A stretch of DNA of 63,257 bases, the filler included, from Kipferlia bialata (taxonomy: Eukaryota), in assembly GCA_003568945.1 (NCBI GenBank). It is 4 parts of 4 records of this genome, joined end to end, with 100 filler letters (N's around TTAATTAATTAA, not from the genome) between each part and the next. Parts side by side here need not be neighbours in the genome. Positions count along the whole stretch, not along the records: positions 1 to 15,766 come from BDIP01000671.1; 3 more parts are not named here. One strand, 5' to 3'. Shown here in pieces: positions 3,112 through 10,029 of this stretch. The position numbers and the translations under genes are program-made. Numbering within the stretch: position 1 is the stretch's first letter; each line of letters begins with the position of its first letter. Below the pieces are notes generated by a model, which did not search any database, was not told where the DNA came from, and saw only the letters and a program-made list of their open reading frames with translations.

Positions 3112-6100
3112 TTAGTCAGTCTTCTGACTGTGTGCACTGCCACTCTGATGATGGCCTCGTTGTGAGGGTGTCTGACCATCGCCTTCTGCACCCACCTGTG
3201 GCACCTCAGAGTCCGCATGAAAGGTCGGTTCTGCCCTGTAATGAGAGCATGCTAGCAATGGCAGTATCAGTTCACTACACGCTACTCTTCAAGGATGAAC
3301 CTGCCATGGAGAGCTGGCCCAGTGCCTGGACGACAGGAAGGACCACACAGGGATCAGCAATGTGTCTCTCCAGGGCTACTTCCAAGTGTTTGAGACAACC
3401 ATCCGCAGCTAGAGCAATCTGTCTCTCATTGTCTGAGTCAGGTATTCGTGTGAATTCATGGTGTATAGACTATAAAGGATGTAGCAGCACTCACAGTCCC
3501 ATGCCAAGTGGAAGAGAACTTGAGCGACACCGGTTGCTACTCTTGCGTTGCTAGTGGGTGACACAAGCAGCAGTGAGATGGCCCTCCGGTGGTGGTTGAC
3601 GAACACGAGAGTCTTGCTGTTCTTGACTGGAATAAATATCCGGAGGCGTTAATTGCCATAGTAGAGAGTAAAGTATATAGATAGATAGATAGACAGCTGT
3701 ACACTTGGACCTGTGTTTGTCAGTTGTGCCAGGGCACCCACAACCTCAGCAAGTACCATTGAGTCACTGTTGTGCGCATACACGGCGGAGACCAGGGGTT
3801 GCATGCATTCTCCTGCTATCTTGGCCTTTAGGCCATGGGACGCTGTGTCAGATAGTACAGTACAGTATGAAATACTTTCTTTGAAATAGCGTCTGGTTAC
3901 CACACTGGTATAACATATACTGGGCTCACCCGTTGTGGCTAGTAGAGCAACTAGCTTCGACGATGAAGCCACTAACTCTGCGTTCGTTGGATGTGTGTCC
4001 AACACCAAGGGAATTGACTTGTGGCACTTTAGGGATTTCATGGAAGCTCTGTTGGAGGCTAAAGGGTCAAGACTCCAGAAATTGAAGTATACAGTTATCT
4101 GCTATAGTGCGGGGTAGAGTGGTACCTGTTGAAGCTAGCACACACAGAGTGTCAAGGGACACAAGACAGCACTCTGGGTCTAATATGTGTGTCTTCAGGG
4201 CTTCCAGAACGACGTGACCTCCACCAGCCCTAACCACACTGCGCTGCCTGTCGGGGTCTGGACTCAGTACATGACAAAAATACAACAGGAGGACGGTAGG
4301 TACATATCGGCTGTGGTATTCAATACTATATCAATATATATATGTCGAAATAATATTAGACACCTTCTGTGCACATCTGTCCCAGTGTCTGGGCCCCCAT
4401 GGTGACAGTGCTAGCGTCCCTGTAGCGTTCCCTCATGACTGTGATGACGATGTGATGGCTGTGCTCGGCACACAGGATGGTGGAGTTCTCGTCTGGGGTC
4501 AAAGACATTGAGTCCACTCGATAATATAGCCAACCCACTACATACCAGCTAGACTCAGGTTGTATAGGGCTAGAAGGGCACTCTGAGAGCTCATAGAGCA
4601 TCCGTTCGTCCCCAAAGACCTGTTCATGCACCACTGTAGCACACTTATGGCGCCACTTGCCACAATGCCCACCCTGTCTCTACTATCGTTGTGTCAGTGT
4701 AAGGTAATGACAAATAGAAAATCAATACTTTGCAGTGCTATGATAGCACTAACCACAATTACACCTTTACATATATATGTAAAGAGTGGACCTACAGAAA
4801 TAGAGTGAAATGTAGAAATGATTGCTATTTGTATCCTTAGCCTTCAACGTACAGCCGCCTGAAAGTCGCTCCAGCATAAGAGTCCCGTGACGCTCTAAGT
4901 CGAGGGGGTCGGAGTCCACCATCATAGTGATACAGAGATCCATATGGGACTGAAGGCAGGACACCACGGGCTCGTAGCACCTCAAAGCGTTGAGAACTGC
5001 CACTGCCTCAGCTGGGTGAGACTCCAACCTGAATGATACCTTCACTGCATGTCTTACCTGTGTCACTGACATCGACCAATAGCCTGAGAATCTTGTTGGA
5101 CAGGTCTGCGTCGTGTGCGTGCTCCCTGAAAGTTGCCACCACGCCACCCAGAGTGGCAGCTGTCATGGTAACAATGGCATCTGGAGCGAGGTGAGAACCT
5201 GATATTGGGGTGATGTAATAGGAAGGATTATGCTGGGCAGACAAACCTCCAGTAACACTGAGTCGCAGAATCTCTAGACCCTCAGTCACAAGTCTCCTAT
5301 TGCGTATGTGTTGTAGCATTGTGTCCACAACGTAGTGCGAACCCAAGTATGCGTGATAACGTGCCGCCGTTCTATCTATTGTTAGAAAGAATGCATAATA
5401 ACTCTACACTTCACAACTAAAGCCGTACCGTGGTCGCACAATCTTGCCATTGCCTCCAGAAGGGATTGGCATGTAGAGATGTCTGCGATGTGTGTGTCGA
5501 GGGCATCAAGTAGCAGTGGGGTAGCAGCAGGACGTGACTCTTCCAATATCCACATGCCTGCGTGAGTGGGTGAAAGTATCATTGACTTGGCATCTTCGGT
5601 AGGTTGTGCAGTGGCAAAAGTGAAACCATTATAGTGTCACACTATGGGGACGAGACTGTGACATAGTGCGATACCTGCTTCACTTATGTTGCGGATGACA
5701 ATGGCCGCCAACGAAACAATGACAGGATCTGTCTTGTGTGCACTTAGAGACGACACTGTAGCACTGATGATGTCATACACCAGAAGGGGCGGCAGAATCG
5801 TTCCTCTCGTTAGACTTTGATATTCCACCAGAGATGAGTAGATACCAGAAATCCATACCATCGTCTGTGAGGAACTCTAGCACCGATAGCACGCCTCTCG
5901 CAAGAGAGTAATTTTCTTGGTGCTTGTCCAGAGCATGCAGCAGCCAAGGAGCTCCCTTGGTCACCTCGGTTCTGTCAGCAAAACCTAGCAATGAGAGAAT
6001 GGGTGTGTGCGTTGGGATAATCCATCGAGTCAACTGGTGACATACCAGCCTTTCCTACGACCGCTATCAGTGCTGCACCGTGTCCGCATACACTGGAAGA

Positions 6101-9100: not shown

Positions 9101-10029
9101 GTCCTTGAGGTAGAGTAGGGAGACTGACAGGCCGTCGAGTGATGCCTGTGAGTGAGATCACTGAACTACATTATATCAGAGAGAGAGACTTACTATATGC
9201 TTGAGAGAGTAGGGGGTGGAGTATGGAGCAGCATTGACATTATGCACCTGGATTGCCGACAGATCCTGAGCCATGGTAGCGTTGATCACTTCCTGCTCTC
9301 CCATCCAGCCCTGCAGGAGAGACCGTATGTCTGCATGGTCGGACTCCAGTGCTGACAGGACCTGATGTGGGAAGAATGGGAAGAATACACAAATACATAG
9401 AATGGCTATATTCTTGCTGTGTGAGTGGGTGAGGGGGAGGGGAGAGAGAGAGAGATAAGTTGCATGTCACGAGAGGTAATATTTGATACCTTAACCCCTG
9501 TGATGATAGAGTTAGTGTATTCACAATGATCTTCTTTACAACTTGACAAGTTGATCTTAGTCTTGTTTAACAAGACTTGTCATTGACATGTCTTTGTAAC
9601 GGCTACACGCACACCATATATACGCAGCCCACCCACTTCATAGACTGTATCGACATCCCACACCTGCGATATCTGGGTCATGTGGGGTCTGAGGACTCCC
9701 TCTATCTGAGCCATGGCCCCGTTGGCCTGACCCCTCTTCTTGACAAGTCCAAACAGAGCCTTGACCGCATCCCCCCCCTTGCCGCCCAGACACCCTGCCA
9801 GTCTCTCAGCCACTGCCTGCACAGGGAGGTCGATACCCTGGTTGGAGAGGGTGCTGGAGACTGCACCTGCGAGGGGTAGGGCCATTGTGACAGGTGACAT
9901 GAGGCACCCTGTGGCTAGGGTAAGGGCAATGGGGACAGCCACGCTGGCAGCAGGCACGCCGTACTTCTTCAAGGCGCCACAGAAGGCGGCCCAACGGCCA
10001 CCCTTAGGGTCACTACCAAGAGCTGGCAT
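3112..10029 (-). CDS. Large multi-exon STAND/NACHT-like P-loop NTPase with N-terminal hydrophobic/helical region and C-terminal armadillo-type repeats (NLR-like)
   Basis: ATG at 10029 (MPALGSDPKGG). Walker A LFVLLADIGRGKTW, Walker B AVLILDGLDE, sensor-like LAVLTCR, and MCRKPFTLRL. Then a charged coiled coil (ERQRQRETERQAE) and many ARM-like exons (LLSGLKTH, LLHALDKH, LLDALDTH, VLEALKTH, VQKAMVRHPHNEAII). Stop TAA at 3112-3114. Phase was checked at several junctions, not all. Confidence 0.7.

Follow-up and report, generated by a model that had tools for sequence, protein, structure and literature searches.

An intron-rich NACHT-type STAND gene with an armadillo-repeat tail in Kipferlia bialata and its relationship to Asgard archaeal proteins

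Introduction

Do free-living anaerobic protists possess intracellular immune receptors? A gene of Kipferlia bialata, together with the family to which it belongs, provides a test case. It lies on the minus strand of the window analysed here, a stretch of 63,257 nucleotides joined from four records of assembly GCA_003568945.1, the first of which is BDIP01000671.1. A first-pass annotation, made from the sequence alone, had described a receptor of NLR type in which a hydrophobic N-terminal region, a NACHT-like nucleoside triphosphatase (NTPase) and a long armadillo (ARM) array follow one another. That architecture stands; the Asgard relationship, the layout of one repeat per exon and the non-canonical splice sites reported below were absent from it. 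The locus is a real, single spliced gene of an anaerobic protist, and the Asgard relationship of its family is well supported. Taken as a whole, the picture of a NACHT-type STAND switch with an ARM tail, acting as a non-self sensor, derived from a Lokiarchaeia-type Asgard archaeon and expanded in Kipferlia, has in our judgement an even chance of being correct.

Gene Structure and Transcript Evidence

The gene runs from position 10029 to position 3108 and comprises 25 exons and 24 introns, with 4755 nt encoding 1584 aa and no internal stop. The 5′ limit given in the first-pass annotation (10029) was correct, while the stop codon ends at 3108 and not at 3112. DNA run X1 was identical to the window in one piece, and all exon pieces from run X2 had zero differing letters. 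X2 was labelled RNA by guess; we treat it as spliced material because the introns are removed in its contigs. Listed joints in these contigs gave 21 introns (15 + 6), a piece table gave one and loose ends the other two. Runs X3 and X4 contributed no matching pieces, which weighs neither for nor against. Three of the 24 introns have non-canonical ends, and all three are removed in frame. The full gene is tiled by several X2 contigs of one sample, none of which spans all 25 exons. One contig of 1845 nt runs from NTPase exons 3–4 through ARM exon 10; therefore both parts are spliced together within a single frame of 1584 aa, as one gene rather than two.

Exon 3 is a 100% match to the hypothetical protein KIPB_003480 of Kipferlia bialata. 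This public automatic model (1157 aa) is without ten of the 25 exons (8, 10, 11, 13, 14, 15, 18, 21, 22, and 25), so a practical point is that the public annotation of K. bialata overlooks exons and non-canonical introns. Contamination with archaeal DNA was ruled out by the 24 spliced introns and the eukaryotic neighbour genes.

The NTPase Module

The motifs quoted in the first-pass annotation, VAVPIALTLATG..., ADIGRGKT, LILDGLDE, and VLTCR, were all found at their places on the minus strand. Intact Walker motifs A and B, a sensor-1 Arg and a helical-domain Pro, the features by which a STAND protein is judged, are present, and G273, K274, T275, D343, E347, R379, and P448 are conserved in 93–100% of 123 aligned family rows. 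The pentapeptide DGLDE fits D[GAS]hDE, the NACHT signature in the available text of Kibby et al. (10.1101/2022.07.19.500537), which recurs in 9 of 13 Kipferlia-clade rows and in 103 of 122 family rows. Walker A had been called atypical; ADIGRGKT is indeed there, but it is not peculiar to this gene: 9 of 13 Kipferlia-clade rows and 44 of 107 other matched rows have Ala at the first position (the pattern mis-matched one further Kipferlia-clade row).

Models of the module, with a predicted local distance difference test (pLDDT) value >85, were closest to NLRC4 (Z 15.8–16.2, root-mean-square deviation 4.2–4.7, 310–319 residues aligned). Archaeal STAND-type ATPases, Avs5, plant NLRs, NLRP3, and Cdc6/Orc1 came close behind, and the top Foldseek matches were to the NACHT of NLRP3. 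The signature, the NLRC4-like fold and the conserved switch residues together bear out a NACHT-like central NTPase.

The high rank of Cdc6/Orc1 structures, which with the archaeal STAND-type ATPases score near the NLRs (Z 14–16), could point to a Cdc6/Orc1-like or other non-STAND AAA+ ATPase, and the three non-canonical splice sites to a decaying gene or an assembly artefact. Such a reading is very improbable and is largely refuted by the DGLDE signature, the repeat tails, and the Pfam NACHT profile PF05729, which passes its cut-off in family members P0025, P0064, and P0070 (this protein itself scores 22.5 bits, with a gathering score of 26.7). The frame of 1584 aa is intact, and both X1 and the X2 exon pieces reproduce it exactly. 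The NTPase does not group with non-STAND AAA+ families, and we regard the protein as a STAND switch with near certainty.

The N-Terminal Module

The stretch beginning VAVPIALTLATG... is located in exon 1. In the structure model, residues 11–100 comprise an amphipathic helix of basic character, an uncharged hairpin of 44 residues and more helices, and long heptad-type helices follow (Table 1). A basic helix with an uncharged run of at least 22 residues is found in nearly all family rows that have an N-terminus, and this uncharacterised module is conserved across two domains of life. No HeLo, RPW8, MLKL-type, or NNH family is listed by Pfam for P0001–P0005 or for 10 proteins of the sister clade described below. 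Fold searches scarcely covered aa 1–200, and the N-terminal domain was present only within longer models. A four-copy complex prediction of aa 8–228, run without an alignment, scored 0.22 against a mark of 0.32. Sequence matches in the PDB to viral spike heptads were discarded as generic coiled-coil matches.

The Armadillo Tail and Its Exons

Exons 7–24 measure 126–159 nt each, all multiples of three, and each encodes one full repeat in register. Each of the 18 internal ARM exons is symmetric, with phase-1 introns on both sides; the first five introns of the gene are in phase 0 and the remaining 19 in phase 1. In the model the solenoid begins near aa 715. The array consists of tandem 42-residue, three-helix repeats, and the exons give 19 of them in register. 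The tail fold resembles importin-alpha, plakophilin, and beta-catenin (Z ~16, from a model of the shorter public protein of 1157 aa), which upholds the long ARM array of the first-pass annotation. Single ARM exons are weak in Pfam (best Arm E 0.055, one of 19).

With one symmetric exon per repeat, repeats of the sensor would be free to be added, dropped or skipped while the reading frame is kept. Relic ARM exons were sought in the 24 introns and none was found (no match below E 0.47). The repeats are highly diverged, with a best repeat-pair score of 67 and no sign of current exon shuffling. The absence of relic exons and of near-identical repeats means that the potential for shuffling is evident and its use is not.

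Paralogues in the Kipferlia Clade

About 13 members make up the family in the Kipferlia clade, and the 13 rows form one clade in a tree of 122 rows; names were checked for six of them. Behind a constant N-terminus and NTPase, the tails are ARM (4), LRR (4), MORN (2), RhoGEF (2), and unassigned (1), so paralogues with swapped C-termini do exist. Named examples are KIPB_006813 and KIPB_004225 (ARM), KIPB_003032 (LRR), KIPB_006266 (coil and MORN), and KIPB_000736 (RhoGEF). An LRR sensor is absent from the protein studied here, and LRRs are present in paralogue P0003 and in many archaeal-type rows. Identity among paralogues is 52–56% in the hairpin, 46–55% in the NTPase and 28–29% in the ARM array, so conservation in the first two is roughly double that in the array.

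A RhoGEF domain occurs in three family-like proteins, P0064 (KIPB_000736), P0070, and P0134, which suggests that some family members have Rho GTPases as their signalling targets; the gene models of these members are automatic, and some family fusions may be gene-model errors. P0064 also has a weak PH match, and the Walker B of P0064 and P0070 ends in QE, not DE. In P0093 the N-terminal module is fused straight to LRRs, without the NTPase, and its C-terminal end CCVM is a possible CaaX-like motif.

Relatives Outside Kipferlia and the Origin of the Family

A profile of residues 1–570, searched against 1.84 billion representatives, matched 1290 clusters at E ≤0.001, 156 at ≤1e-10, and 84 at ≤1e-30. 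The best 150 matches were listed, most of them without a name check. Most strong matches span the N-terminal module and the NTPase, with HEAT, LRR, TPR, WD40, or FHA tails among the 47 proteins scanned, and a metagenomic family outside Kipferlia has the same hydrophobic N-terminal hairpin. Twenty matches of non-Kipferlia type were looked up; four carried a taxon name, and all four were Asgard (two Thorarchaeota, one Lokiarchaeota, and one Promethearchaeia).

Trees were built on 122, 50, and 42 of the 150 listed matches, after fragments without the NTPase core had been dropped, the smaller sets being picked to limit run time. The careful tree (50 rows, 342 columns) recovered the Kipferlia clade with support 100/98 and joined it to two unnamed metagenomic clades with 100/96. 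It split Kipferlia and the archaeal-type rows from six rows, called bacterial by domain content with names unchecked, with 100/100. The quick tree (509 columns) and the FastTree tree agree with it. Identity of the NTPase to archaeal-type rows is 27–32%.

The N-terminus points in the same direction. A profile built from Kipferlia N-termini only, like the other N-terminal profiles without P0006 of the Thorarchaeota clade, ranked one of these two clades, the sister clade, above every other outside Kipferlia (E 1e-21 to 6e-9, against 2.5e-7 for the best other clade), and the motifs PxAIxLATG and TILxRMG are common to the N-termini of Kipferlia and the sister clade. Within that clade, P0034 has a TPR-LRR tail 38.7% identical over 457 aa to a named Lokiarchaeota protein, and at the metagenome locus L010 a related member is encoded in a frame free of interruptions. 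On these two grounds the immediate sister clade is probably of Lokiarchaeia type.

Lateral transfer from Asgard archaea is the origin towards which we lean slightly. The family would probably have been acquired from a Lokiarchaeia-type archaeon, with later expansion in the Kipferlia line and with eukaryotic tails grafted on after the acquisition. A more detailed version, in which a late transfer gave rise to a dozen or more genes with exon-modular ARM sensors and RhoGEF outputs, an independent NLR-like immunity of archaeal instead of bacterial source that shares a so far undescribed membrane-hairpin effector with the Asgard archaea, is offered tentatively.

Vertical descent from the Asgard ancestor of eukaryotes, followed by loss nearly everywhere else sampled, would leave the protein, and probably its sensing role, as described. 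The approximately unbiased (AU) tests bear on this point, as they leave unrejected a sister position of Kipferlia to the archaeal-type rows as a whole (p 0.112, 0.19), so neither the nesting of Kipferlia within the archaeal-type family nor the direction of transfer is established. The low NTPase identity, the richness in introns and the deep diversification of the family also agree with descent, and some eukaryotic NACHT groups appear to have ancestry in common with Asgard proteins in the available text of Leao et al. 2024 (PMC11291487). We nevertheless consider descent unlikely: in the best trees Kipferlia is nested with a single sub-clade, to which the N-terminus also points, and the tails of that sub-clade are Lokiarchaeia-like rather than Heimdallarchaeia-like. 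Many losses would be needed, since no named eukaryote besides Kipferlia was among the name-checked matches (most of the 150 are unchecked). Either origin matters. A late transfer would mean Asgard gene flow into modern protists and would complicate the "ancestral" reading of genes shared by Asgard archaea and eukaryotes, whereas descent would mean that a receptor of the archaeal host has survived here.

The relatives P0006–P0085 form a large, apparently Asgard family with N-terminal hairpin, coil and NACHT followed by HEAT, LRR, TPR, WD40, or FHA tails, and in some of its clades a CHAT-like or Cys-rich domain takes the place of the N-terminus. These proteins are covered by none of the curated defence models. 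A metagenome scan gave at least seven loci, one of them close (L010, 37%). With P0006, a GTDB scan returned a single weak match of 70 aa on a Thermocladium contig, and the family profile found none in 301 genomes of that contig's phylum in a search without a positive control. One viral contig scan gave three weak P-loop matches and the other none, and a plasmid scan gave none. The ESM Atlas, whose index leaves out small clusters, showed large bacterial NACHT-type clusters and no others. L011 9008–12004 encodes an unrelated, putatively bacterial NACHT protein; its tail is probably of sulfatase-modifying type, and apparent Pup-proteasome-like genes lie close by.

Proposed Function

In STAND proteins such as NLRC4, Avs, and bNACHT, the repeat tail keeps the ADP-bound monomer shut, and ligand leads to ATP exchange and oligomerisation. 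By analogy, the Kipferlia protein would be a nucleotide switch, shut by its ARM tail and opened by a ligand. The array would bind a foreign or damage-related protein, for instance from a virus or from an engulfed or invading microbe. Oligomerisation would cluster the N-terminal coils and present the basic helix and hydrophobic hairpin to a membrane, which the hairpin would anchor to or permeabilise. An intracellular role in non-self sensing is probable, because the family combines a constant switch with variable tails and because characterised prokaryotic STANDs have a defensive role. That the hairpin acts on a membrane is an evenly balanced proposal, suggested by the conserved basic helix and uncharged hairpin and the want of an enzymatic effector.

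Several results weigh against this picture, beside the Cdc6/Orc1 scores, the sub-threshold PF05729 score, the AU tests, the diverged repeats without relic exons and the six checked names of 13 reported above. The hairpin is of moderate hydrophobicity (best 19-residue mean 1.8) and in the model sits within a confidently predicted helical domain, and the protein contains no enzymatic or death-fold effector. Among the 20 matches looked up, 16 are without a taxon, and the immediate sister clades contain no named member. No paralogue of the gene was found elsewhere in the window. The immune or cell-death output is putative.

The protein could instead be a STAND switch domesticated for ordinary signalling, perhaps at a membrane in the course of feeding or trafficking, with the ARM array binding an endogenous partner and the hairpin as an anchor, and with no part in defence or death. 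It stays a serious rival because RhoGEF-tailed members exist (P0064, P0070, and P0134). MORN and ARM tails serve widely as scaffolds in eukaryotes, a toxic effector domain is missing, and shuffling is not active. In contrast, lineage-specific expansion, a constant switch and faster-changing, variable repeat tails are the usual pattern of NLR-type receptors, and characterised prokaryotic STANDs of like layout are mostly defensive. On balance ordinary signalling seems rather unlikely, and non-self sensing is the role we prefer.

Comparison with Known Systems

As far as the consulted parts of these sources go, bNACHT (Kibby et al., 10.1101/2022.07.19.500537) and Avs STANDs (PMC13581612) share with the Kipferlia protein an N-terminal module, a D[GAS]hDE NACHT and a superstructure of repeats in the tail. 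The Kipferlia protein differs in its ARM tail and in having no catalytic effector. Repeated prokaryote-to-eukaryote transfer of NACHT followed by lineage-specific expansion is already described in that preprint's available text. Its donors are bacterial and Asgard archaea go unmentioned in its main text, whereas the nearest named relatives of the Kipferlia family are Asgard. Bacteria are the prokaryotic sources so far described for the NACHT receptors of eukaryotes. In PADLOC and NCBIfam defence models, no family was found for P0001 at E 0.01, and relatives gave weak, partial matches far under the cut-offs.

Animal NLRs (NLRC4 and NLRP3) and plant and fungal NLRs have the closest solved NTPase fold and a three-part layout in common with this protein. 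They differ at 9–14% identity, and the Kipferlia protein has ARM rather than LRR and is without CARD, PYD, TIR, or a recognised coiled-coil (CC) or HeLo domain. The Kipferlia receptors are a lineage independent of animal, plant, and fungal NLRs. The NB-ARC-TPR and ROCO-LRR candidate receptors of Ectocarpus, in the portions of PMC3341825 available, likewise have one frame-preserving exon per repeat (126-nt TPR there, 126–159-nt ARM here). There, however, the switch is NB-ARC and not NACHT, the repeats are TPR and not ARM, and relic exons and near-identical repeats occur, of which none were found here.

NLR systems occur in Asgard archaea, with tentative shared ancestry with some eukaryotic NACHT groups, according to the available text of Leao et al. 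2024 (PMC11291487). In its supplements as searched, Kipferlia appears only for viperin and Argonaute; the image of Supplementary Fig. 2A lies outside that text, and overlap is possible there. Searches of openly available full-text literature found no account of the family, of NACHT-ARM or NACHT-RhoGEF in Kipferlia, or of the Asgard relationship, and nothing combining NACHT, RhoGEF, domain architecture and protist. The searched passages of PMC7539657, PMC10853773, and 10.64898/2026.10.28.762692 leave the family untreated. Prokaryotic NACHT transfer with expansion and exon-per-repeat sensors are already known, and the Asgard link is what is unusual here.

Intron Ends

Introns 8, 9, and 17 carry the non-canonical ends (Table 1). 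Another allele is an unlikely source of them, because X1 and X2 exons match the window letters exactly, although contigs can mask rare variants. Breaks in X2 contigs near introns 10 and 16 are not readable as alternative splicing. Of the 24 introns, 19 have a branch-like YTVAY that ends 3–8 nt before the acceptor; among background windows the figure is 24 of 251. The pattern was picked after inspection of the data. In Giardia the branch point is fused with the acceptor (PMC10711314, in the passages available), and a comparable fusion may account for the tolerated non-AG ends. The available text of the Kipferlia genome paper counts GU-AG introns only (PMC5874029). The Kipferlia spliceosome could be tolerant and guided by the branch point, possibly as a genome-wide pattern.

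Feature Coordinates and Surroundings

Table 1. Positions in the window of the gene, its parts and neighbouring genes.
Feature	Position	Strand	Basis or remark
Whole coding gene	3108..10029	-	X2 spliced contigs joined into one frame; public model KIPB_003480
Exon 1, aa 1-122: basic amphipathic helix, hydrophobic hairpin, helices	9664..10029	-	predicted helical, pLDDT 75-94 from aa 11
Uncharged Gly/Ala/Pro-rich hairpin, 44 residues, aa 23-66	9832..9963	-	PxAIxLATG motif common to archaeal-type sister clade
Heptad-type long helices, exon 2 and start of exon 3	9017..9361	-	coil aa 102-203, beginning in exon 1
NACHT-clade STAND module (nucleotide-binding domain, helical domain, winged helix), aa ~204-570, exons 3-4	7817..9016	-	model and fold matches
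Walker A ADIGRGKT, aa 268-275	8801..8824	-	sequence, family rows
Walker B with NACHT signature LILDGLDE, aa 340-347	8585..8608	-	sequence, family rows
Sensor-1 region VLTCR	8414..8428	-	R379 in 93%, W383 in all of 123 aligned family rows
Exons 5-6: charged coil, acidic disordered linker (aa 672-711), first solenoid helices	7097..7697	-	sequence and model
Armadillo array, exons 7-25: 19 repeats, one per exon	3108..7034	-	exon structure and fold matches
Intron 8, GA-AG ends	6641..6697	-	X2 contigs
Intron 9, GT-AT ends	6454..6511	-	X2 contigs
Intron 17, GT-CG ends	4687..4852	-	X2 contigs
Class-V aminotransferase	22682-23506		window neighbour
Double AAA ATPase	24105-26527		window neighbour
Protein kinase	from 26949		window neighbour
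WD40 gene	37113-37577		window neighbour
Ribosomal L1-domain protein	51475-52314		window neighbour

Between 22682 and 52314 the window holds ordinary eukaryotic genes and no defence cluster. An assembly gap of 530 N (2224–2753) lies ~350 bases beyond the stop codon, and the 3′ RNA contig extends past position 2800. In a neighbouring minus-strand gene, tandem short exon-edge copies stand between CT and TA microsatellites at 10495–10790 and 11040–12000; these may be local duplications or assembly errors.

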